DNA of 64,000 nt from an uncultured Oscillospiraceae bacterium (GTDB taxonomy: Bacteria; Bacillota; Clostridia; Oscillospirales; Ruminococcaceae). Shown here in pieces: positions 31,831-55,437 of the stretch. Where the stretch lies: positions 5,355 to 69,354 of the forward strand of contig CATJLA010000101.1 in assembly GCA_949741215.1 (NCBI GenBank). The letters are read 5' to 3'. Position 1 is the first letter of the stretch; each line of letters opens with the position of its first letter. The notes under the pieces were generated by a model that did not search any database, was not told where the DNA came from, and worked only from the letters and a program-made list of their open reading frames with translations. The position numbers and the translations under genes are program-made.

Positions 31831-32445
31831 TTAAAAGAACGGAATTCTGGTGGTAGGCTGAGGCGGCGTCAGCTTCAGTCTGCTTACCACCGGCAGCATC
31901 ATCTGAAAAAACAGCACCAGCACAATTACCTCAACGGGCAACATGCCGATATTTTTTATCAGGCTTTTGGTCAGATAATAAAGATACCCCTTGCCATACA
32001 GAATGGTGCTCCACAACGCCCCTAACCCCACGTTTACCAGCAGATTTACGCAGATTTTACACAAAGTAATCCGCAAAACCGTGATTCTGGCGCGGTAAAA
32101 GAACACCGCGTAGGTAAAAGCACCCATCATGGTGGTAAGGGTGTAACCAGGAAAAAACTCCCCCGTGGGGTGAATAATATACCCCAAAATATCGCTGACA
32201 AACCCTGTACCCAGAGATACCACCGGCCCATAAATCAGCGAACCAAGGGCATTTACAAAAAAACTGAAATAGATCCGCTGGTTCTCCCCGATCGGGATAA
32301 AAAAAGACGAAATCACAATTCGCAGGGCCACCAGCAATGCGGCCACAGCCAGCATCCGCAGCTGTTTGCCCTCCCGGACGGCAGTTTGCCAGTACTCTTT
32401 GGTAAAGGGCAGCGGGAAAAGCTTTGTCTTACTTGGTTCGGTCAC
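31831..32445 (-). CDS. folT: ECF transporter S component, folate family (FolT-like)
   Basis: Multi-TM protein with the typical FolT-like sequence FFIPIGENQRIYFSFFVNALGSLIYGPV... It is preceded by a THF riboswitch. I chose the GTG start at 32445, 8 nt after GAGGAGG. The track ORF is longer. Confidence 0.75.
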   Translation of the reverse strand: MTEPSKTKLFPLPFTKEYWQTAVREGKQLRMLAVAALLVALRIVISSFFIPIGENQRIYFSFFVNALGSLIYGPVVSLGTGFVSDILGYIIHPTGEFFPGYTLTTMMGAFTYAVFFYRARITVLRITLCKICVNLLVNVGLGALWSTILYGKGYLYYLTKSLIKNIGMLPVEVIVLVLFFQMMLPVVSRLKLTPPQPTTRIPFF

Positions 32446-32682: not shown

Positions 32683-32805
32683 GCAGCAGCGGGATGCGGA
32701 TTCTGCACCGTAAGCCAACGGCTTTTCGTCCGCCTGACAACTCCCCGTTCAGACGGCACTGGCGCACCCGGAAAACCGGATACAACGCGCAAAATCCTAC
32801 TCTGC
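32683..32805 (-). ncRNA. THF (tetrahydrofolate) riboswitch aptamer
   Basis: Minus strand reads GCAGAGUAGGAUUUUGCGCGUU...ACGGUGCAGAAUCCGCAUCCCGCUGC. This matches the conserved THF-I features as I remember them from the Eubacterium siraeum aptamer (AGAGUAG, GCGUU, GCAUCCGCU, with P1 and P2 pairings). It is upstream of a folT-type gene. Confidence 0.75.
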
Positions 32806-32819
32806 TTTTTCAATATAGT

Positions 32820-33044: not shown

Positions 33045-33076
33045 GCAAAAAAAGCGGGAAAACTCCCGCTTTTTTC
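33045..33076 (-). terminator. Rho-independent (bidirectional-looking) terminator after the Cys/His-repeat gene
   Basis: AAAAAAAGCGGGAaaacTCCCGCTTTTTTC. Confidence 0.85.
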
Positions 33077-33083
33077 TTTCTTT

Positions 33084-33647
33084 TCAGTGATGATGCCTGC
33101 CGGAGTGATGGGAACCTTGAGAATGATGATATCCATTCCCATAACCGTATTCATAGGCCGGAGCCGTACTGCTTTCCTGCTGCTGTACGGAAGAAGATCT
33201 CTCCGGTTCGGACTGTTGTACCCAGGGGGAAGCCTCCGGTTCAGGCTGCTGTGCAGGCATGAACAGCTGCAGGCCGGCAGCAATCCCATAGGAGCAGCCA
33301 TGCCTGTGCCATAAATTCTGCAAACCGTTGCAGTGGGTGTGCTCCAGGGTACAAAAAGCTTCCGTGCAGTGGGTATGGCTCAGGCTGCAGAGCATTTCAG
33401 GGCAATGCTCATGGCTGGCGGTACAGGCGACGTCTGTACAGTGGCTATGGCTTATGGAACAGGAAATACCGGAGCAATGCAGATGATCAAGGGTACAGCT
33501 CTCACCGGCGCAATGGGTATGGCTGATTCCGCACTGGCCGGAAGCCCCCTGATGATGCGCGGAAACAACAAAAACAGACCCAATACCCAGAGCCGCGGCA
33601 AGGGCAAGGGACACAGCCGCTTTAACAAATGAAAACAGTCTTTTCAT
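33084..33647 (-). CDS. Secreted Cys/His-rich tandem-repeat protein (putative metal-binding), no recognised family
   Basis: Signal-peptide-like N-terminus MKRLFSFVKAAVSLALAAALGIGSVFVVSA. Six consecutive 12-residue units C-x3-H-x-H-C-x4 follow (CGISHTHCAGES, CTLDHLHCSGIS, CSISHSHCTDVA, CTASHEHCPEML, CSLSHTHCTEAF, CTLEHTHCNGLQ). The C-terminus is GYHHSQGSHHSGRHHH. Confidence 0.8.
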   Translation of the reverse strand: MKRLFSFVKAAVSLALAAALGIGSVFVVSAHHQGASGQCGISHTHCAGESCTLDHLHCSGISCSISHSHCTDVACTASHEHCPEMLCSLSHTHCTEAFCTLEHTHCNGLQNLWHRHGCSYGIAAGLQLFMPAQQPEPEASPWVQQSEPERSSSVQQQESSTAPAYEYGYGNGYHHSQGSHHSGRHHH

Positions 33648-33690
33648 TCGGACTTCTCCTTTACTTTATGATGAATTCATTATTATCTCC

Positions 33691-33719
33691 AGTATAGCAG
33701 ACAACAAGGGGTTTGTAAA
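33691..33719 (-). promoter_or_regulatory. Candidate sigma-A promoter for the Cys/His-repeat gene
   Basis: Minus strand reads TTTACA, a 17-nt spacer, then TATACT. A 10-bp palindrome ATGAATTCAT (33671-33680) lies just downstream of the -10. Confidence 0.6.
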
Positions 33720-33755
33720 GGAGAAAGCCGGCTGTTTCCGCGGGCTCGCTGCGGA

Positions 33756-39604: not shown

Positions 39605-41614
39605 CTACCATTTTTTGTAAAGCTTAGCCACCAAAACTCCCGCCAGCAGTACCGTCCCGGAAACAAGCAGTAAAATCAGCTGTTGCCCCTCCCCGGAGCC
39701 GCCGCTGCCTGGCTGCTCCCCTCTGCCCATTTCCGGAAAAGCCATCCGCTGGGCTGGCTGGAACTCACCTTCTCCGGCATTGCCCTCTGGCTGTGCGGGG
39801 GAATTTCCCGCCTCCTGTCCGTCAAGCTGCCCCTGCTGCCGCTCAAAGCCGCCCCGGTTGCCGCCGCCCTCATTGTTGTTGCCCATGGCGGAAAGGGATA
39901 GATGAGAAGCATCCACTAAGGCGGAGCCGTTCTCCCGCTGGCCCTCGGTGGTGGAAGGAATGGCGCCATCCAGCTGGCCCTCCACGCTGTCTGCCCTCAA
40001 AAGACAAAACTCCTTCAGCACAGCAACTCCCTGCTCAAATTCCTCAAAGCTGCAAAAGGCGGTAGGGTCCTTTTCCACATAGGGGGAAATTAAGGCGGCA
40101 GTTTCGTCCACCAAAGCTATAAAAGAGCCGTCCTCAAATTGCTGCAGAAACTCCTTATAAACCTGGTGATACTGCTGCGTATACTGTTCATCCTCAAAAA
40201 TCCAGGCCACCATAGGGCGGTCAGAAAGCTCCCCGCTGCTTACCGGGGAGTCAATCGGCAAGTTGACCTGCCCGGTGGCGTCCCCACCTCCAAAGCCTCC
40301 AAAGGCCAGGTTGTAGTCCCACGGGATCATGGCAAGCTGTCCGTCCTTCTCATACAGGTAGTAGTTATGGACAATGCTGCCGGTGTAGCTGTCATCATTG
40401 CACAAAAAGTTATGCACCGCAAAGTACCGGATTACCTGCTCGATATCCACCGCTGAAGCATCCCCCTCCGAAAGGGCCTTTAGGGAGGCAATCAGCCGCT
40501 GTTGGTCCTGCTCGGTAACATCGGTTTTGCTGTTCTCAAAAATATTGCTGTAGCTGGCCGGGTCGTCGTCAATGTATTGCAGCTTGACGTCGCTGCTGCC
40601 CATACTGCCCATGCCTCCGCCAAAGCCGCCCCGGTTGCCAAAGCCTCGGTTGCCGGCGTTCTGCCCTGGGGTTTCCCCCTCTGCAGGGGCATTTCCAGCG
40701 TCCTCTTGCCCTTGGGACAGCAGTGCATCCCCCGATTCTCCGGCCTTAGGCAAGGCCTCTCCGTTCCTGCCGCCCTGCTCATTCTGCCCACCGGGAGGAT
40801 TCCCTGCAGGCTCCATATTTCCGGCATTCCTTTCCTGGAAGCCTTGGGGCAGCTCAGGGGGCTGGCCGTTGCCGTCAAAAGCGCCGTCATCCTCCACGGG
40901 GGGCTGCCCGTTGCCCGAAAAGCTTCCCGCCGGCTGCCCGTCCCCAAAATTGGGCGGATTTTCAGGCGAAAAGTCCCCTTTGGCGCCGGCTCCCCCGCCG
41001 CCCATATCCGTGCTGTCCGGCTTGTAAAGTTTGCCGTAATTCGAGCCGTAATTGCGTTGGAGAAAAGCCTCTTCAACCCCCTCTACCGCCAGATAAAGCC
41101 CCCAGTCCTCTCCGTTTACCGTGATATAAACAAAGCTGCACAGCGGCGAAGCCACCCCCGCACGGGCCATCAGCGTGTAAGAGAGGTAGTCCTTGAGATA
41201 GGTGTTATCCTGCACGATGTTATTCAGCGCCAGCTTATCCAGGCCGTAGTAGCTGCCGCCGGAATGATACTTATCGAACTCGATTTTGAAGCTGTACCGG
41301 TTGTTGCCATAGGACTGCACCGTGGTAAGGGAGCTGTTCCCCTTGGCGCGGATTCCCACGTTTTTATAAGCCTCGCCGTCAATCACCACACTGCAGGCGA
41401 CGTACTGCTCGTCGGTGCAGGTTGCCAAAAAGCCTTCCCAATCCTCCATCACCAGGTCAATGGTGTGTACCCGGGAGGTGTCAAACAGGCGGGTTTCATA
41501 TCCCATCTGATTTTCCGCCTGGGCAAAGGAGAGGTTTCCCAGCAAAAGGGCAACAGCCAGGCAAATCACCATGACAAAACAGCAGATTTTATCAATATAT
41601 CGGTGTTTGAGCAT
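39605..41614 (-). CDS. CotH kinase family protein with Gly/Pro/Asn-rich insert and C-terminal TM anchor
   Basis: HTIDLVM...YVACSVVIDGEAYKNVGIRAKGNSS...RYSFKIEFDKY...LALNN...DYLSY...NGEDWGLYLAVE...LYKPD is typical CotH. A low-complexity region spans about aa 205-345. The C-terminus LILLLVSGTVLLAGVLVAKLY is hydrophobic. Confidence 0.85.
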   Translation of the reverse strand: MLKHRYIDKICCFVMVICLAVALLLGNLSFAQAENQMGYETRLFDTSRVHTIDLVMEDWEGFLATCTDEQYVACSVVIDGEAYKNVGIRAKGNSSLTTVQSYGNNRYSFKIEFDKYHSGGSYYGLDKLALNNIVQDNTYLKDYLSYTLMARAGVASPLCSFVYITVNGEDWGLYLAVEGVEEAFLQRNYGSNYGKLYKPDSTDMGGGGAGAKGDFSPENPPNFGDGQPAGSFSGNGQPPVEDDGAFDGNGQPPELPQGFQERNAGNMEPAGNPPGGQNEQGGRNGEALPKAGESGDALLSQGQEDAGNAPAEGETPGQNAGNRGFGNRGGFGGGMGSMGSSDVKLQYIDDDPASYSNIFENSKTDVTEQDQQRLIASLKALSEGDASAVDIEQVIRYFAVHNFLCNDDSYTGSIVHNYYLYEKDGQLAMIPWDYNLAFGGFGGGDATGQVNLPIDSPVSSGELSDRPMVAWIFEDEQYTQQYHQVYKEFLQQFEDGSFIALVDETAALISPYVEKDPTAFCSFEEFEQGVAVLKEFCLLRADSVEGQLDGAIPSTTEGQRENGSALVDASHLSLSAMGNNNEGGGNRGGFERQQGQLDGQEAGNSPAQPEGNAGEGEFQPAQRMAFPEMGRGEQPGSGGSGEGQQLILLLVSGTVLLAGVLVAKLYKKW

Positions 41615-41650
41615 TCATTCGCCCATCCTTTCTGTTGATTTATGCCGGCT

Positions 41651-42325
41651 TTATCCCAGATAATCCCCGTTATAGCTTACCAGAACAGCGCTTTCCACCC
41701 CATCCAGCTGGGAAAGCTCGGTAATAAATCCGCCGTTGCCGGACTTCAGCCGCACCTCATAATTCAGCTCAATCTGCCCGGCTCGGGCGCTCTGGCTTTT
41801 CAGCACAGCCCGGTTTACCTGCTGCTCCAAAAAGGCTTTGGCGCGGGCCTCCCCCTCTGGGCTGCTACATCCAATTACCACTACAAAAGGATTTTCTGAG
41901 GGCTTTTTGTTGGCAAATACCAGCAGGATCAGCCCAATGCCCACGCTGCCGATTACCGCCAGAGGGATCATCCCCGCCGCCAAAACAATACCGGCTGCAA
42001 TAGACCAAAACAGAAAAGCGATGTCCAAGGGCTCCTTAATAGCGGTACGGAACCGTACAATCGAAAGGGCGCCCACCATACCAAGAGAGAGCACCACGTT
42101 GGAGGTAACTGCCAGAATCACCAGGGTAGTAATCATGGTAAGAGCAATCAATGTAACGCCAAAGCTGGAGGAATACATCACCCCGGCAAAGGTTTTTTTG
42201 TAGATCAAAAAGATAAACATCCCCACCCCAAAGGCAAGAATCAGGGCAATAGCCATATCCAAAAGGGAAACTCCGGTAATATTCTCCAAAAAGCTGGATT
42301 TAAAAATGTCAGAAAAATTTATCAT
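41651..42325 (-). CDS. DUF4956-like membrane protein
   Basis: The start MINFSDIFKSSFLE comes 7 nt after AAGGAG. Multi-TM N-half with LSIVRFRTAIKEPLDIAFLFW and a soluble C-half. The pattern is as in DUF4956 proteins. Confidence 0.7.
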   Translation of the reverse strand: MINFSDIFKSSFLENITGVSLLDMAIALILAFGVGMFIFLIYKKTFAGVMYSSSFGVTLIALTMITTLVILAVTSNVVLSLGMVGALSIVRFRTAIKEPLDIAFLFWSIAAGIVLAAGMIPLAVIGSVGIGLILLVFANKKPSENPFVVVIGCSSPEGEARAKAFLEQQVNRAVLKSQSARAGQIELNYEVRLKSGNGGFITELSQLDGVESAVLVSYNGDYLG

Positions 42326-42437
42326 AGTAATACTCCTTCTCTGCAAATCAATGTGTAGTATCTTTCGTTTTATTTCTATTGTAAGACGTCGTTATGTCTT
42401 CTGCTTTCGTGAAAGCTTGGCGCACCGGGGGCAAAAA

Positions 42438-43112
42438 TTACCCGTACAGCCTGCAGGCCTGGTACTTGGAAAACGCTGTGCTGTGCCGTCCTGAAAGCTG
42501 TACCGCCCGCCGGATAGCCTCCGGCAAAAATTCGTCCCACTTTACCTCCAGCAAAATCACCTGCTCCCCTGCCGGAACGGTAAGGCTTTGCGGGTTTAGA
42601 AAATCGGTACTGTACAGCCCTGTACGGATATGATAATCCAATGTTACCCGCACATTGCCAGGTGGGTAAACATAGGGCTCACGGGTATATTCCACAATGG
42701 TTTTAGGGCGCAGCTGCTGGGATTGCATCTTACTGTAAAGCTCTATTACAAGGGGTTTTTGGCTTGTTGGCATCCAGGCGGTGTTTCCGTCCAGCAGCGC
42801 CTGCACCTCTTTGGCTGTAAGGTTTTCTGCCCGCTTTTGGCACAGGCCGTTGAATTTGCTTTTTTTCTCAAGATGAATCACCGTGCTGTCTCCGTTATAC
42901 AGCCGGAGACGAAATTTCTCCCGCTCATTCACCCCGTCGATCTTCTCCCGCAGAGCTTTGTCGGAGGGGGTGTCAAAGTAAAGGCTCCGAATAGTATAAA
43001 AGCCGTCCCTGCCGGCATGGGGATCCGGAGACATCACAGCACCCAGACGCTGGCGCAGCGCGATCCTGTCCGAAAAGCTAATAATATGCTTCCATTCGTT
43101 GCGATAATCCAT
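42438..43112 (-). CDS. VTC-domain (polyphosphate-polymerase-like, CYTH/tunnel fold) protein
   Basis: MDYRNEWKHII...YTIRSLYFDTPSDKALREKIDGVNEREKFRLRLY is typical of the bacterial VTC domain. I chose the start at the internal Met after AAGGAGAG. Confidence 0.75.
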   Translation of the reverse strand: MDYRNEWKHIISFSDRIALRQRLGAVMSPDPHAGRDGFYTIRSLYFDTPSDKALREKIDGVNEREKFRLRLYNGDSTVIHLEKKSKFNGLCQKRAENLTAKEVQALLDGNTAWMPTSQKPLVIELYSKMQSQQLRPKTIVEYTREPYVYPPGNVRVTLDYHIRTGLYSTDFLNPQSLTVPAGEQVILLEVKWDEFLPEAIRRAVQLSGRHSTAFSKYQACRLYG

Positions 43113-43478
43113 AAAGCTCTCCTTTTTTCTTAGGATGCCCTTATCATACCGCCTGAACCTTAAATAAGGCTTAAGAAACATCGGCAAGCCTTAAACATTC
43201 GTCGGATAAATTATTAAATTTCTTAAAATCATCTTGGCTGGGGAGATATTTTATTGTTTAACTAAATTCCTTTATTCCTCTTATATAGTCTTCCTGTAAG
43301 GATAAGGCTCCGGCCGCCCTTGCGGGCATGGCCAATCCCTCCGCTTCGCATAAAGGGACTTTTTTAAGGAATACCCTGCGGGATTCAAATGGCCGTGGAA
43401 ACCGGTCGGCTGCGCCTCCCTCTCCACATGGCCAAAAAAATTTACTCCGCTGCGCTTCGTAAATTTTTCAAAAACCCC

Positions 43479-43537
43479 TTGACAATTGAGTAGTTGTTCA
43501 ATTATAATAACAGCAGAAGTTGAGTGATTGCTCAATT
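43479..43537 (+). promoter_or_regulatory. Promoter of the metal ATPase operon with two ArsR/SmtB-type operator-like imperfect palindromes
   Basis: TTGACA (43479-43484), an 18-nt spacer, then TATAAT (43503-43508). AATTGAGTAGTTGTTCAATT (43484-43503) fills the spacer. A 16/20-identical copy, AGTTGAGTGATTGCTCAATT (43518-43537), lies just downstream. Confidence 0.6.
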
Positions 43538-43679
43538 ATTCAAAACGGGGGCTTTCAAACAAAAAGAGGCTTTCCGCAATGTTCCAAAACACAGGCGGGC
43601 AGGACGTCCGCAAAGACTACAGCAACATACACTAATACTTATTGTAAGGGCAAAAGCCCAAAGAAAGGGAGGCATTTTT

Positions 43680-43901
43680 ATGAAAAAGGCGTTTCGGTTA
43701 GTTGGGTTGGACTTTCCAAACTGTGCTGCTAAAATTGAGGCGGAGGTACAGAAGATTCCCGGTATTACTGCGGCCTCGGTAAACTTTATGACCACCAAAA
43801 TGACTTTGGAGGCTGAGCGGGAGGCCATGCCCGCTATCGTGGAACAGGCCACCGCTATTGTGAAGAAGCTGGAGCCGGATGTGGAAGTTGTGAAAGCATA
43901 G
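43680..43901 (+). CDS. Stand-alone heavy-metal-associated (HMA) domain protein with degenerate metal motif
   Basis: MKKAFRLVGLDFPNCAAKIEAEV...MTLE has an HMA fold pattern, but the usual C-x-x-C is reduced to F-P-N-C. It is in the same reading frame as the downstream ATPase, separated by TAG plus 4 codons. Confidence 0.7.
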   Translation: MKKAFRLVGLDFPNCAAKIEAEVQKIPGITAASVNFMTTKMTLEAEREAMPAIVEQATAIVKKLEPDVEVVKA

Positions 43902-43916
43902 CGGGAGGCTGTTGCC

Positions 43917-45785
43917 ATGAAAAAGTGGAATGCCAATCAAAAGCGGATAGCACGGATAGCGGCAGGGGGTATCGTTTTTGTGACGGGGCTGCTGATCCCG
44001 TTCTCCGGCTATTGGGTAAGGCTTGGGGTGTTCCTTGCCGCCTTTTTGCTGGCAGGGGGAGATGTTTTATGGAAGGCCGCCCGCAATATTGCTCATGGTC
44101 AGGTATTTGACGAAAATTTTTTGATGGCGATTGCTTCTGTTGGAGCGTTTATCATCGGCGAGTATCCCGAAGGGGTTGCCGTAATGCTGTTTTATCAGGT
44201 TGGGGAGCTGTTCCAGAGCATGGCGGTGGCAAAATCCCGGAAGTCGATTACGGATTTGATGGATATCCGCCCGGATTACGCCTATGTTCTGCGGGATGGC
44301 GAGCCGGAAAAGGTTGACCCCGATGAAGTGGAAATCGGGGAGCTGATCGTCATAAAGCCCGGAGAAAAGGTGCCGCTGGATGCCGAGGTAACCGAGGGGA
44401 GCTCCATGCTGGATACCGCCGCTTTAACCGGCGAGTCAGTCCCCAGAGAGGCAGGGCCTGGAGACGCTTTGTTAAGCGGGTGCATCAACCTGAACGGGGT
44501 GCTGACCGCCCGGGTAACCAAAGAGTATGGGGAATCCACTGTAAGCAAAATTTTGGATCTGGTGGAGAATGCAGGGAGCCTGAAATCCCGTTCGGAAAAC
44601 TTTATTACCAAATTTGCCCGGTATTACACCCCTGCGGTAGTCATTCTGGCTGTGCTGCTGGCAGTTATTCCGCCACTGGTGCTGCCGGGGGCTGCTTGGG
44701 CGGACTGGATATACCGTGCCCTTACCTTCCTGGTAATTTCCTGTCCCTGCGCGCTGGTAATCTCGGTGCCCCTTAGCTTCTTTGGCGGATTGGGGGCAGC
44801 CTCCCGCAGTGGAATTTTGGTTAAAGGCAGCAACTATCTGGAGGCGCTTGCCCAGGCGGAGATTGTAGTGTTCGACAAAACCGGCACCCTGACCCAGGGA
44901 GTTTTCCGGGTGCAGGAGATCCGGCCTGCAGTGGGCTCTCCGGAGCAGCTGCTGGAGCTGGCGGCTTATGCGGAAAGTTACTCCAACCATCCTATTTCCC
45001 TCTCGTTAAAGGAGGCTTATGGTAAAGGACTGGACAGCACACGGGTAACTGATGTGCAGGAGATTGCAGGCTGCGGCGTTGTCGCAAAGGTAGATGGCAG
45101 GCAGGTAGCTGCAGGCAACCAAAAGATGCTGGCAAGGCTCTCGTTACCGCAGCCGGAGGAGCATGCCGCCGGTACGGTTGTTTATGTAGCGGCAGAGGGG
45201 GTATATCAGGGCAGTATTTTAATTGCGGACCAAGTAAAGCCGGATGCAGCGGAGGCGATTCGCAGCCTGAAAAACGCAGGCGTTAGGCAAACCGTGATGC
45301 TTACCGGAGATACCAAAAGGATCGGGGAGCAGGTAGCCGGGCAGTTGGGGCTGGACCAAGCCTTTACCGAGCTGCTGCCGGGAGATAAGGTAGCAAAGGT
45401 GGAGGAGCTGTTTGCCCAAAAGACAGAAAAAGGAAAGCTTGTTTTTGTTGGCGACGGCATTAATGATGCTCCCGTGCTGGCGCGGGCAGATTTAGGCGCA
45501 GCTATGGGCGGCCTTGGGTCAGACGCAGCGATTGAGGCAGCGGATATTGTAATTATGACCGACGAACCCTCCCGGCTTGCAGATGCCATGGCAATTTCCC
45601 GCAGAACTATGGGGATTGTAAAAGAGAATATTGTGTTTGCCCTTGGGGTAAAGCTGCTGGTGCTGATTTTAGGCGCGGCAGGATATGCCTCCATGTGGGC
45701 GGCGGTTTTTGCGGATGTAGGCGTGTCGGTATTGGCTATCCTGAATGCCATGCGCGCCCTGAAAATAAAAAAGGAACCGGCCTGA
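43917..45785 (+). CDS. Heavy-metal translocating P1B-type ATPase (Zn/Cd/Pb-type)
   Basis: The motifs CPCALVISVP, DKTGTLT and VGDGINDAP are present. 622 aa. GGGAGG lies 8 nt upstream of the ATG. Confidence 0.9.
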   Translation: MKKWNANQKRIARIAAGGIVFVTGLLIPFSGYWVRLGVFLAAFLLAGGDVLWKAARNIAHGQVFDENFLMAIASVGAFIIGEYPEGVAVMLFYQVGELFQSMAVAKSRKSITDLMDIRPDYAYVLRDGEPEKVDPDEVEIGELIVIKPGEKVPLDAEVTEGSSMLDTAALTGESVPREAGPGDALLSGCINLNGVLTARVTKEYGESTVSKILDLVENAGSLKSRSENFITKFARYYTPAVVILAVLLAVIPPLVLPGAAWADWIYRALTFLVISCPCALVISVPLSFFGGLGAASRSGILVKGSNYLEALAQAEIVVFDKTGTLTQGVFRVQEIRPAVGSPEQLLELAAYAESYSNHPISLSLKEAYGKGLDSTRVTDVQEIAGCGVVAKVDGRQVAAGNQKMLARLSLPQPEEHAAGTVVYVAAEGVYQGSILIADQVKPDAAEAIRSLKNAGVRQTVMLTGDTKRIGEQVAGQLGLDQAFTELLPGDKVAKVEELFAQKTEKGKLVFVGDGINDAPVLARADLGAAMGGLGSDAAIEAADIVIMTDEPSRLADAMAISRRTMGIVKENIVFALGVKLLVLILGAAGYASMWAAVFADVGVSVLAILNAMRALKIKKEPA

Positions 45786-49085: not shown

Positions 49086-49445
49086 TTATTCATGTTCCAT
49101 GTGGGTAAGCGCCAGCTCGATAATATCGGTAACGTGCTGATCATCCAGGCTGTAGAAGATATTGATGCCCTCCCGCCGGGCCTTGACAATTTTACTCTGC
49201 CGCAAAGAGCTGAGCTGGTGGGAAACCGCTGATTTCGTCATGCCCATCACATGAGCCAGGTCCGTTACGCAAAGCTCCCGCTTATCCAGCGCCAGAACAA
49301 TACGGGTGCGGGTAGGGTCCCCAAGCATTTTGAACAAGGCGGCTACCGAGTGCAGCAGCTCGTCCGGCAGCATGGCGGCTTTGGCCTGCTTTACCAGTGC
49401 CTCGTTTACCACGGCGCCCTCCGCATTTTCTGGTCTTTCCATCAC
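49086..49445 (-). CDS. ArsR/SmtB-family metalloregulatory transcription factor
   Basis: LFKMLGDPTRTRIVLAL...ELCVTDLAHVMGMTKSAVSHQLSSLRQSKIV...FYSL, with C-terminal His residues (HVTDIIELALTHMEHE). Confidence 0.88.
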   Translation of the reverse strand: MMERPENAEGAVVNEALVKQAKAAMLPDELLHSVAALFKMLGDPTRTRIVLALDKRELCVTDLAHVMGMTKSAVSHQLSSLRQSKIVKARREGINIFYSLDDQHVTDIIELALTHMEHE

Positions 49446-52794: not shown

Positions 52795-53169
52795 ATGGAA
52801 GAAAAACAGGTAAACTTATGTGAAAGCGAATACCGACTTGCTGAAATTGTGTGGGAGCGGGAGCCGGTTTCCTCCGGGGAGCTGGTGGCCCTGTGCGAGG
52901 GGCGGCTGGGGGGGAAAAAATCCACCGTGTACACCGTGCTGAAAAAGCTGTGCCAAAAAGGCGTGCTGCAAAACGAAAACGCTACCGTTATCGCTTTGGT
53001 GAAGGCGGAGCAGGTGCAAAGATTTGACAGCGAGCAGCTGGTGAACGGCAGGTTTGGTGGCTCTCTGCCCCGGTTTTTAACCGCTTTTATGGCAGGGAAG
53101 AAAATCAGCCCTACCGAGGCCGAGGAACTGAAACAGCTGATTGACAGCTACCGGGAAAAGGAGGATTAA
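52795..53169 (+). CDS. BlaI/MecI/CopY family transcriptional repressor
   Basis: 124 aa reading EYRLAEIVWEREPVSSGELVALCEG...KKSTVYTVLKKLCQKGVL, a winged-helix penicillinase-repressor pattern. Confidence 0.88.
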   Translation: MEEKQVNLCESEYRLAEIVWEREPVSSGELVALCEGRLGGKKSTVYTVLKKLCQKGVLQNENATVIALVKAEQVQRFDSEQLVNGRFGGSLPRFLTAFMAGKKISPTEAEELKQLIDSYREKED

Positions 53170-53172
53170 CAG

Positions 53173-55437
53173 ATGGAGCGCGTATTTTTGCAGGTACTTA
53201 ACATGAGCCTTACTGGCAGCTATGTGATTATTGCGGTAATTTTGCTGCGGCAGCTTTTGCGCAAGGCTCCCAAACGGATTTCCTACGCTTTGTGGGCAGT
53301 GGCGCTGTTCCGGCTGGTTTGCCCCTTTTCGCTGGAAAGCTCGGTAAGCCTGCTGCCCTCCGCCAAGCCTCTGCCGGAGACAGTGCTGCTTTCCCACAGT
53401 CCGCAGGTACAAAGCGGCATCCGGGTGATTGACCAGGCGGTGCAGCTGCCTGCTCCTGCCCCGGGAGACAGTGCCAACCCTATGCAGATATGGATGTGGA
53501 TTCTGGGCATTGTTTGGGTAGTCGGCATAGTGCTTTTGCTGGGCTACAGCCTTATTTCCTGGCTGCTTTTACGGCGGCGTATTCAGGGCGCGGCCCTTTT
53601 AGGGGATGGCGTTTACTGCTCCGATACCGTACCGGAGCCCTTCGTCCTGGGGATGTTCCGCCCCAAAATCTATCTCCCCGCCGGGCTTAGTGAGCAGGAA
53701 ACGCAGTATATTGTCAGCCATGAGCGGTTTCATATCCAAAGGCATGATCCGTTTTTTAAAATGCTGGGCTTTTTTACCCTGTGCCTCCACTGGTTTAACC
53801 CGCTTGTGTGGATAGCTTTTCTGCTGATGACGAAAGACATGGAGATGTCCTGCGATGAAAGAGTGATTGAAAGCCTGGGTACAGGGGTAAAGCAGGAGTA
53901 TTCCCGCACGCTGCTGGCCTTTGCCTCTGCCAGCGGGATGCCCAAGGGTGCGCCCTTAGCCTTTGGAGAAAGCAACGTCAAGTCCCGCATCCGCAACGTT
54001 TTAAGCTATAAAAAGCCTGTTTTCTGGGTGACGGTAGTGCTGATGGTACTTCTGGCGGCAGTGGGGGTAGGCTTTTCGGTAAACCCACAAAGCTACCGTC
54101 CCTTGGGCAGGGTGGCGCCCGAACTGCCCTCCATCTCACCGGAGGTGGTTTCCAAGGTAGTGGTAGAGTCCCCGGCAAGAACGGCGGCCTTTGTTGAAAA
54201 GGACAGAATTGAGGAAATCTACCAGATGATTTCCCGGCTGCCGGTAAGCAGCAATGCCGCTTCTCAAAGCAGGGGGGACGGGGATTCGGTAACCCAAGTC
54301 ACCTTCTATGACAAGGATGTACCGGAGCAAATCCGTTTTCAGCTGCACATCAACGACGACATGACCCGGGTTTGGGTCGATAACATGATAGAACCTTCTT
54401 ATCCTTATGAGGTAGAGGACCCGGCGGTGCTGTTACGTCAGCTGGATAGCTTGCTGGGGCCGGCAGAGCCTTCCCAGTGGATTGAAGGCCAGCCCGGCGG
54501 CGGGGAGGATAGCTACCAGGCGGCTGTGGCGGAGGCCAGCGGATATGCGGAAGAAAACCCGTTTTTGAAAGAGCTTGACGACAGTATGGCCGTAGTTGAC
54601 CATAATGTGATCATTTCTATCCCGAACCGGCAGCTGCCGGAGGGGCAGAGCTTTACTCTTACCCTCACCTATACTCGGGGCGGGGAGGAGTACCCCCTGT
54701 TTGGCAGCCGTACCGAGCAGAATGCCTGGGAGCCGGGAACAACCTACCAGCAAATCCTGCCGGGGGGCGAGATTTTGGAGGGCAGTAAAGTCAACTGCAG
54801 GGTTGAGCTGCTGAACGCAGAGGGCAGGCTGCTTGGAAGCAGCAGCCACACCACCTACCTGCCGGAGGGCGAGCAGCACCGTGCTGCTGTGGAAATCCCG
54901 TCAGAAAGGGGAGAAGCCCACCTGCGCTTTATCAATATCTTTGGGGACAGCTTTGGCGTTACCATGAGCCTGCCGGAGGGCTTTACCTTCCGCCGGGTAA
55001 GCGACGACGACCTGGAAAGCCCCTACCCCTACTCCCAGCTGGCGCTTTTCAACGGAGAGCAGCAAATCGGCAGCTTTTTCTACGAAAGCTACGACACCTA
55101 CGAGGACATTCCCCCGCAGGAATACTACAAGGCGGTGTACAGCAGCATTATGATAGGCTCCATGATGAGCTGGCGGGAGGATTATGCCGAGGTGCGCCGG
55201 TTTGAGGACGGTGCGGCTGCCACCTGCACCGTGTGGGAGGTAAAGCCCCTGCCCGGCCAAAACACGGCGGAATCCCAGCGGGTAGAGGGCAAAGGGGTGC
55301 TTTGCTATAACGATAAGCTGCACATCTTCATCGCCCTTTCCATGGATGACAACAGCCTTACCGACGACCAGCTGCTTGCCCTGGCCCAAAGCGTTACCCT
55401 GGAGCCGGAAAGCTGGCAGCCTGCCGGGGCGCAATAA
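53173..55437 (+). CDS. BlaR1-like M56-family membrane metallopeptidase with ~440-aa non-PBP C-terminal domain
   Basis: N-terminal TM helices and SHERFHIQRHD (HExxH) in the M56 position. The large C-terminal extracytoplasmic region has no obvious SxxK/KTG penicillin-binding motifs. Confidence 0.8.
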   Translation: MERVFLQVLNMSLTGSYVIIAVILLRQLLRKAPKRISYALWAVALFRLVCPFSLESSVSLLPSAKPLPETVLLSHSPQVQSGIRVIDQAVQLPAPAPGDSANPMQIWMWILGIVWVVGIVLLLGYSLISWLLLRRRIQGAALLGDGVYCSDTVPEPFVLGMFRPKIYLPAGLSEQETQYIVSHERFHIQRHDPFFKMLGFFTLCLHWFNPLVWIAFLLMTKDMEMSCDERVIESLGTGVKQEYSRTLLAFASASGMPKGAPLAFGESNVKSRIRNVLSYKKPVFWVTVVLMVLLAAVGVGFSVNPQSYRPLGRVAPELPSISPEVVSKVVVESPARTAAFVEKDRIEEIYQMISRLPVSSNAASQSRGDGDSVTQVTFYDKDVPEQIRFQLHINDDMTRVWVDNMIEPSYPYEVEDPAVLLRQLDSLLGPAEPSQWIEGQPGGGEDSYQAAVAEASGYAEENPFLKELDDSMAVVDHNVIISIPNRQLPEGQSFTLTLTYTRGGEEYPLFGSRTEQNAWEPGTTYQQILPGGEILEGSKVNCRVELLNAEGRLLGSSSHTTYLPEGEQHRAAVEIPSERGEAHLRFINIFGDSFGVTMSLPEGFTFRRVSDDDLESPYPYSQLALFNGEQQIGSFFYESYDTYEDIPPQEYYKAVYSSIMIGSMMSWREDYAEVRRFEDGAAATCTVWEVKPLPGQNTAESQRVEGKGVLCYNDKLHIFIALSMDDNSLTDDQLLALAQSVTLEPESWQPAGAQ

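Follow-up and report, generated by a model that had tools for sequence, protein, structure and literature searches.

An exported-type protein of six tandem C-x3-H-x-H-C units from an uncultured Oscillospiraceae bacterium, a candidate extracytoplasmic metal binder

The stretch of DNA analysed here (the window) comprises 64,000 nucleotides (64 kb) of contig CATJLA010000101.1 (GenBank assembly GCA_949741215.1, positions 5,355 to 69,354 of the forward strand) from an uncultured Oscillospiraceae bacterium. On its minus strand the window carries a gene for a small, predicted exported protein built from six tandem Cys/His units, which is the subject of this study. The gene lies between an aconitase-family hydratase gene of the PRK11413 type upstream and, downstream, the gene for the S component of a folate-type energy-coupling factor (ECF) transporter, which sits behind a tetrahydrofolate (THF) riboswitch. 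Sequence comparison, described below, suggests that the protein may bind metal ions outside the membrane.

Results

The window gene encodes a predicted exported protein with six Cys/His units

A first-pass annotation of the locus had described a secreted-type protein of six tandem C-x3-H-x-H-C units followed by a His-rich tail, and the translation of the open reading frame (ORF) agrees with this exactly (Table 1). The motif starts at residues 39, 51, 63, 75, 87 and 99, always 12 residues apart, in units 1-3 (CGISHTHC-AGES, CTLDHLHC-SGIS and CSISHSHC-TDVA) and units 4-6 (CTASHEHC-PEML, CSLSHTHC-TEAF and CTLEHTHC-NGLQ). Six-frame translation of the 64-kb window contains no further C-x3-H-x-H-C outside this array. 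Given how frequent Cys and His are in the window, ~0.07 single motifs would be expected by chance, so six in register are not due to chance. The N-terminal region has the features of the Sec-type export signal that had been claimed for it, namely a K/R-rich N-terminus, a hydrophobic core and V-S-A ahead of the cut, and the protein is presumably exported and its signal peptide cleaved. The mature protein would then be acidic (pI ~6.1) and have ~157 residues, 23 of them His and 13 Cys. The window protein shows neither a wall anchor nor a lipobox, an S-layer-homology motif or a sorting motif.

The 36-nt periodicity ascribed earlier to the DNA is real, but it is weak. Tandem Repeats Finder reported no repeat in the window gene, and the periodicity was therefore demonstrated by lag autocorrelation, in which base identity reaches 52.5% at a lag of 36 nt and 54.4% at a lag of 72 nt, against 21-32% at the other in-frame lags tested (3-99 nt). 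The DNA identity between units is only 47-61%, and the Cys and His codons of the array use both synonyms (TGC/TGT and CAT/CAC). Together, the weak DNA identity and the synonymous codons indicate an old, diverged array whose motif is maintained at the protein level.

Table 1. Features of the window gene, its surroundings and the sister-branch locus
Feature	Position	Strand	Remarks
ORF	33084..33647	minus	187 aa + TGA stop, complete
Predicted Sec signal peptide	33558..33647	minus	MKRLFSFVKAAVSLALAAALGIGSVFVVSA, residues 1-30, cleavage after V-S-A; from sequence features
Predicted mature N-terminus	33534..33557	minus	HHQGASGQ, His-His at new end
Six 12-residue units	33318..33533	minus	C-x-hydrophobic-polar-H-x-H-C-x4, residues 39-110, three 24-residue odd/even pairs
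Degenerate seventh half-unit	33297..33314	minus	W-H-R-H-G-C, residues 112-117; read from translation
Linker	33156..33317	minus	residues 111-164: half-unit, short hydrophobic patch GIAAGLQLFMPA, acidic Q/E/S/P-rich stretch
Tyr/Gly/Ser/His-rich tail	33087..33155	minus	YEYGYGNGYHHSQGSHHSGRHHH, ends RHHH
Sigma-70-type promoter	33691..33719	minus	TTTACA-17 nt-TATACT, TG ahead of -10 hexamer; 10/12 consensus matches
16-bp near-palindrome	33668..33683	strandless	ATAATGAATTCATCAT, perfect 10-bp core ATGAATTCAT; candidate repressor operator
Ribosome-binding site	33654..33661	minus	AAGGAGAA, 6 nt ahead of ATG; read from sequence
Intrinsic terminator hairpin	33048..33075	strandless	GCGGGAG-TTTT-CCCGC, A/T runs flanking both sides; 9 nt past stop
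THF riboswitch	32685-32806	minus	79 bits, E = 3e-17
ECF-transporter S component	31831-32355	minus	presumably folate transporter
Sister-branch apparent operon	L122 7950-9484, also L123-L130

The protein belongs to a very small, unnamed family

Sequence and profile searches with the window protein returned no Pfam, NCBIfam or PDB match, only noise (e.g., LDL-receptor class A at E = 8.7), and a search of the literature under several spellings of the motif retrieved unrelated acronyms only, which bears out the earlier statement that no characterised family has this architecture. Relatives are also scarce. A word-indexed homology search with the single window protein found zero relatives, and the same kind of search with a profile of four internal repeat units found one fragment only. 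phmmer, run exhaustively against 1.84 billion representative proteins, gave five matches, four of them real (E 4e-17 to 6e-11); a profile search extended the family to eleven clusters, and degenerate DNA patterns, scanned against GTDB species genomes and JGI metagenomes, added a few members, for a total of about a dozen sequence clusters. The members of this "CHHC-repeat" family are the window protein, P0001-P0003, P0006-P0009, L016, L060, L063 and L099. Relatives with a named source, a group that covers a minority of the metagenome-derived members and not the short sister branch described below, come from Angelakisella and an Oscillospiraceae metagenome-assembled genome (MAG), save one Bacteroidota-like surface protein. 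The sole annotation found among relatives is "hypothetical protein [Angelakisella sp.]".

The window protein and all full-length relatives have a predicted Sec-type signal peptide with an A-x-A-like cleavage site, recognised in the sequence and, for the window protein, as an AlphaFold2 helix. They share, with significant similarity over the phmmer range given above, an even number (4-10) of alternating units of the form C-x-hydrophobic-[DNSE]-H-x-H-C at a period of 11-12 residues, which in the long branch of the family take the form C-x-[LIV]-[DNS]-H-x-H-C, followed by a tail rich in Tyr, Ser, Gly, Arg and His. This tail ends in -HH in all full-length long-branch members in which it is intact (SSHH, GSHH, NPHH, RYHH and SRHH in relatives). 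The window protein is the family's most divergent member, having mostly Ser instead of Asp/Asn ahead of the first His and a long extra linker, whose Q/E/S part is present in none of the aligned relatives.

Conservation is concentrated on the putative ligands. All 24 Cys/His positions of the window array are invariant in alignments with relatives, which are 30-45% identical; of the columns that never vary in the mature region, all but two are occupied by the Cys and His of the units, and linkers and tails diverge freely. Such selectivity for Cys and His is the pattern that would be expected of ligand residues. The odd-numbered units close with acidic linkers and the even-numbered ones often with C-V-H-x-x, and because of this alternation the true repeat is a pair of 23-24 residues. 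In relatives, Tandem Repeats Finder reports periods of 69-72 nt at 83-87% identity. Variation in repeat number between strains, for which the first-pass annotation had proposed to look, is seen in these relatives: near-identical alleles of the Angelakisella lineage differ in having 4, 6 or 8 units, and an array of 10 is found in another lineage, always an even number. The Bacteroidota-like protein P0004 contains 14 such units beside a weak PKD-like domain match, among neighbours that include PKD-domain proteins and proteins sorted by the type IX secretion system (T9SS), and because its array stands in a different protein context, the 8-residue unit appears to be a portable module. These observations show that the window protein belongs to a real and strongly constrained family that is unnamed and very small.

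An allele of P0001 in the Angelakisella lineage has a frameshift after ...NVYSGC that swaps the His-rich tail for unrelated sequence; the frameshift is found in two independent assemblies (L003 4359-4889 and L096 1295-1786).

The mature protein has no predicted fold

AlphaFold2 gave the full window protein, with 10 aligned sequences, a mean predicted local distance difference test (pLDDT) score of 44, and the sole confident helix spans residues 2-20 within the signal (pLDDT ~80). A 48-residue fragment of four units, with 17 rows of an internal-repeat alignment, had a mean pLDDT of 42 and no secondary structure. In terms of local geometry, H-x-H is typical of β-strand sites, and C(i), H(i+4) and C(i+7) would lie on the same side of a helix.

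The window gene is a stand-alone expression unit

The window gene forms a unit of its own: its promoter is close to consensus, its ribosome-binding site (RBS) is strong and it has a terminator to itself. The relatives examined all have their own near-consensus promoters in the same position. The near-palindrome starts ~8 nt past the -10 hexamer and covers the expected transcription start, and it may act as an operator. We take it to resemble the ArsR/SmtB 12-2-12 site only after removal of 6 bp. The palindrome noted earlier in this promoter exists and occurs once in the 64-kb window, but it has no conservation in relatives. An operator shared across the family was rejected, the palindrome being missing both in the promoters of relatives and elsewhere in the window, and so was an operator link to the Zn/Cd ATPase and ArsR genes 10-16 kb away, where the inverted repeats differ.

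A 16-nt inverted repeat (33649-33664 with 33715-33730, 88% complementary) pairs the RBS of the gene with a segment that overlaps the -35 box. In read-through RNA from the upstream hydratase gene, the predicted fold hides the RBS (-38.8 kcal/mol, z = -5.1); transcripts that start at the gene's own promoter would be without the upstream arm. The inverted repeat may insulate the gene from read-through translation.

A short sister branch is linked to a sigma/anti-sigma pair

Relatives of the window gene occur in at least four different gene contexts among their lineages, so that a conserved gene neighbourhood was rejected. In one type of context a thioesterase and an OppA-like solute-binding protein are encoded upstream and ParA/ParB downstream; in others an HxlR/RrpA-like regulator or an NlpC/P60 hydrolase is encoded upstream. 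Two lineages have, directly after the gene, one for a small protein (L007 1371-1877 and L101 133-489) that matches no family; its N-terminus PPWRPEDQRSWEELERRAAAQAREFY is conserved, its middle is of low complexity and rich in Pro and Ala, and a hydrophobic segment lies at its C-terminus.

A short sister branch (P0012, P0030 and P0011) consists of proteins of 98-108 residues with two or three strict units plus degenerate copies. Their signal peptide is followed by GHHGHGC or GHHHGC, in the same place as the His-His N-terminus of the window protein. The commonest of these proteins (98 residues) is found on 736 metagenome contigs from many public assemblies. Its gene follows one for an ECF-transporter S component. 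Ahead of the gene stands a conserved TGAAAG-N17-CGTATC element; we take this element to resemble the promoter consensus of sigma-W-type extracytoplasmic function (ECF) sigma factors. The gene of an ECF sigma factor starts 13 nt past the small gene and overlaps the gene of an RsgI-like anti-sigma factor, whose His-rich extracellular C-terminus ends in CGGHQNGNGTGTSSGGGHHEGHH (GGGHHEGHH); feoA-feoA-feoB lie convergently downstream of this apparent operon. A second species keeps the arrangement, with a sigma factor 94% identical and a strongly diverged small protein. The linkage suggests a connection with sensing or stress outside the membrane. No homologue of the sister-branch sigma/anti-sigma pair occurs in the 64-kb window, and the neighbourhoods examined for long-branch relatives are likewise without such a pair. 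An ECF-transporter neighbour shared between the window and the sister branch was rejected, since the two components are unrelated.

Discussion

A candidate metal buffer or scavenger outside the membrane

On balance, and with moderate confidence, we read the window protein as an extracytoplasmic multi-site metal buffer or scavenger that uses thiolates and imidazoles. In such a mechanism, a small acidic protein would be exported through the Sec pathway into the surroundings of a likely anaerobic Clostridia cell, where its cysteines are expected to stay reduced. There it would act as a multi-site buffer, scavenger or "sponge" beyond the membrane. Each 12-residue unit would offer two thiolates and two imidazoles, and the units would be paired into three 24-residue modules, with about six sites altogether. 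The His-His N-terminus and the His-rich C-terminal tail might serve as weaker sites for capture or hand-off. The metal-free protein would probably be disordered and fold around the metal, for which the likely candidates are ions of soft or borderline character, such as Zn(II), Ni(II), Co(II), Cd(II) or Cu(I). We favour this reading because Cys2/His2 are strictly conserved in each unit, because both termini are rich in His, and because the protein appears to be exported to a probably anoxic exterior; the recurrence of the Cys/His spacing in COG0523-type and SlyD-like tails (see below) and the ECF sigma link of the sister branch add to it. The latter leans slightly toward a stress or protective role, and a repressor-type operator over the transcription start would fit scavenging and protection alike.

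Several observations weigh against the metal-binding interpretation. The argument draws on residue chemistry, and genomic context adds little to it: no metal transporter, metal chaperone or metal-sensing regulator adjoins the gene in the window, and since the neighbourhoods of relatives vary by lineage, they offer no consistent clue. The palindrome is missing upstream of the relatives whose promoters were examined, and to our knowledge it fits none of the Fur, Zur, PerR, CsoR, CopY, NikR, AdcR or Rex boxes. The absent AlphaFold2 fold would fit metal-free disorder but could equally reflect shallow alignments. Furthermore, adjacent His and Cys are awkward for a single tetrahedral site, so the real geometry may differ from one Cys2His2 site per unit, which we use as a working assumption; the adjacent His-Cys may serve neighbouring ions. 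The earlier interpretation as a whole is plausible and in part supported: the absence of a known family, the export signal and the variation in repeat number hold. An adjoining metal gene, a conserved palindrome and a predicted fold are lacking.

Comparison with known systems

In its sequence organisation the window protein is best classed as a putative exported tandem-motif metal-binding protein, for which PhtA/B/D/E, SilE, Pra1 and Hpn would be functional analogues, none of them homologous. The streptococcal poly-histidine-triad proteins, which are secreted or located at the surface, bind Zn and hand it on to the uptake protein AdcAII (PMC3842936). Like the window protein, PhtA/B/D/E are exported, and they are Gram-positive surface proteins that carry a short metal-ligand motif in several copies; unlike it, they are much larger and under AdcR control, and their HxxHxH motif lacks Cys and lies inside large folded domains. 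A test for Strep_his_triad on the window protein found no HxxHxH and no Pfam match. SilE is disordered without metal and folds upon metal binding (PMC5008109). SilE and PcoE are likewise small exported "sponges" with many short metal-ligand motifs, but these are His/Met motifs without Cys, the hosts are Gram-negative, the genes lie inside sil/pco resistance operons, and there is no sequence similarity. In the zincophore Pra1 the best Zn site is a Cys/His-rich C-terminal stretch, SHCHTHADGEVHC (PMC9175090). Pra1/AspF2 thus resemble the window protein as secreted metal scavengers that use a Cys/His-rich stretch, and differ in being eukaryotic (fungal), in having a single stretch on a folded domain and in the partner Zrt1; they are not homologous.

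Bacterial metallothioneins and Csp proteins bind metals with high capacity through Cys, with or without His, and their metal-free forms are poorly structured. Metallothioneins such as SmtA/BmtA and MymT are cytosolic and have no signal peptide, whereas the window protein carries one and has no Pfam or NCBIfam match when tested against SmtA/BmtA. Csp proteins are Cys-lined four-helix bundles; for the window protein, the Csp (DUF326) test gave no Pfam match, and the low-confidence AlphaFold2 model has no helix past the signal peptide. The window protein also contains no CxxC and has no Pfam or PDB match to classical C2H2 or other zinc fingers, and no CxxCH of the c-type cytochrome kind is found in it.

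The C-x3-H-x-H-C spacing also occurs in the His/Cys-rich tails of a CobW/COG0523-like GTPase of Atopobium/Lancefieldella and of a SlyD-like FKBP of a Muribaculaceae MAG. Both are of kinds known as metallochaperones, and the spacing is seen there independently. Hpn and Hpn-2 are small nickel-binding proteins of high histidine content (PMC4671568). The likeness to the SlyD/COG0523/Hpn group lies in the alternating H-x-H-C or C-x3-H-x-H-C spacing of the Atopobium and Muribaculaceae tails; the difference is that these proteins are cytoplasmic and not exported, with irregular low-complexity tails that have no strict periodicity. The DNA pattern of two units matches many Atopobium/Lancefieldella loci (L012-L084), in which the GTPase tail reads ...HDHSHCDHEHGHCVHEHCDHEHGHC... 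and varies in length between strains; the match in the SlyD-like FKBP tail lies at L040 2599-3192.

Alternative explanations

The gene of the sister branch, first of three tightly spaced genes ahead of the ECF sigma and anti-sigma factors and downstream of an ECF-type promoter-like element, suggests another role, as a sensor or accessory of envelope-stress signalling that reports metal or redox state to an anti-sigma factor or another sensor and is not a bulk buffer. The His-rich extracellular end of the anti-sigma factor would fit such a role. The CnrYXH Ni/Co system is comparably organised, and like it the sister branch pairs a small exported His-rich component with an ECF sigma/anti-sigma system; the two are not homologous. 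We consider a sensor unlikely for the window protein, since its gene stands as a unit by itself, with a promoter of the housekeeping type, a terminator of its own and no sigma/anti-sigma neighbour, the pair is missing from the window and from long-branch relatives, and six to ten repeated sites speak for capacity over sensing.

Only slightly less probable than a sensor is a structural or adhesive protein of the envelope, matrix or spore surface, cross-linked through disulfides, metal or tyrosine. The Tyr/Gly/Ser/His-rich tail and the repeats with their variable copy number would be typical of surface proteins, the units of P0004 stand beside a weak PKD-like match near PKD-domain and T9SS-sorted proteins, and the organism of the window looks spore-forming, with a CotH gene ~6 kb from the gene. 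The absence of any of the surface-attachment motifs looked for (see above), the small size and the acidic character of the protein argue in the other direction. Its signal peptide speaks against mother-cell assembly into a spore coat, and extracellular disulfides are unusual in strict anaerobes.

The 13 cysteines, a rubrerythrin nearby in the window and the redox-type HxlR/RrpA-like regulator directly upstream in one lineage might instead point to a sacrificial or redox-active extracellular thiol protein, which would quench oxidants or electrophiles at an oxygen-sensitive cell surface. We regard this as improbable, more so than a structural role: it leaves the two invariant histidines per unit and the His-rich ends unexplained, and the HxlR neighbour is confined to one lineage.

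Short Cys-containing repeats behind a signal peptide could also belong to a multi-core precursor of a ribosomally synthesized and post-translationally modified peptide (RiPP), for example a thiol-derived metal chelator, that is Sec-exported like bufferins, and one lineage has a radical SAM gene at a distance of two genes. This is very improbable: within ~10 kb in the window there is no MNIO/DUF692 protein, peptide-recognising radical SAM maturase, protease or exporter, the genes there having unrelated Pfam assignments or none, and neither a modifying enzyme nor any other neighbour is conserved across lineages; the radical SAM gene of lineage C has only weak, generic matches. Finally, a chance or decaying ORF, suggested by the rarity of the protein (the exact protein is found on only one other short contig, with identical DNA), can be practically dismissed given the promoter, RBS and terminator, an architecture kept in about a dozen clusters and synonymous motif codons that show selection.

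Wider meaning of an exported thiolate/imidazole protein

Beyond metal buffering or scavenging as such, we tentatively propose, as a possibility of low probability, that the window protein is a founding member of an undescribed class of exported Cys2His2 tandem-repeat metalloproteins, found so far almost only in Oscillospiraceae. Such proteins could act as protein metallophores that capture Zn, Ni or Co in the sulfide-rich contents of the gut, or as effectors or sensors of metal stress under ECF sigma factors, with capacity tuned by the gain or loss of 24-residue modules. As thiols survive outside the cell only without oxygen, use of secreted thiolate/imidazole proteins by Oscillospiraceae is proposed.

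Extracytoplasmic metal handling by strictly anaerobic gut Clostridia is poorly known, and the metal proteins described so far from outside the cytoplasm belong for the most part to aerobes or pathogens and do without free cysteines. If the proposal holds, a secreted protein that consists almost wholly of Cys2His2 units would show that anoxic habitats permit thiol-based metal chemistry outside cells, and the family would offer a compact, modular, high-capacity metal-binding scaffold with natural variants of 4, 6, 8 and 10 units. The sister gene with its ECF sigma link would provide a route into uncharacterised envelope signalling in a bacterium that recurs in public metagenome assemblies. If no metal is bound, the family would remain unexplained, as a strongly constrained repeat family.

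The remainder of the window and its source lineage

The rest of the window is a housekeeping Clostridia chromosome (leuS, smc, ftsY, rnc, plsX, topA, dprA, infC, rplT, addAB, CotH and rubrerythrin), in which rubrerythrin and a radical SAM enzyme are markers of the anaerobe type. Of the conserved window proteins, the seven that were checked (ribosomal protein L20 among them) each form a singleton cluster at 90% identity and are known from one 75.7-kb NCBI contig and from raw-read assemblies, which marks the source lineage as rarely sampled. A copy of the gene, with DNA identical to that of the window, lies on one further public contig (L001).

Within the 10-16 kb range from the gene, the region 43470-45785 includes, on the plus strand, the gene of a P1B ATPase of the Zn/Cd type (622 aa). 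Ahead of the ATPase gene, a small separate ORF at 43681-43901 resembles a heavy-metal-associated domain with GLDFPNC in place of the usual CxxC. The ATPase promoter region contains two 16-bp inverted repeats, TTGAGTAGTTGTTCAA and TTGAGTGATTGCTCAA, and an ArsR/SmtB-family gene lies at 49086-49442. Elsewhere, a cluster on the minus strand (39605-43181) encodes a CotH kinase-like protein, a DUF4956 protein and a VTC-domain protein, and the plus strand at 52795-55437 encodes a BlaI/CopY-family repressor and, after it, a BlaR1-type M56 sensor protease.

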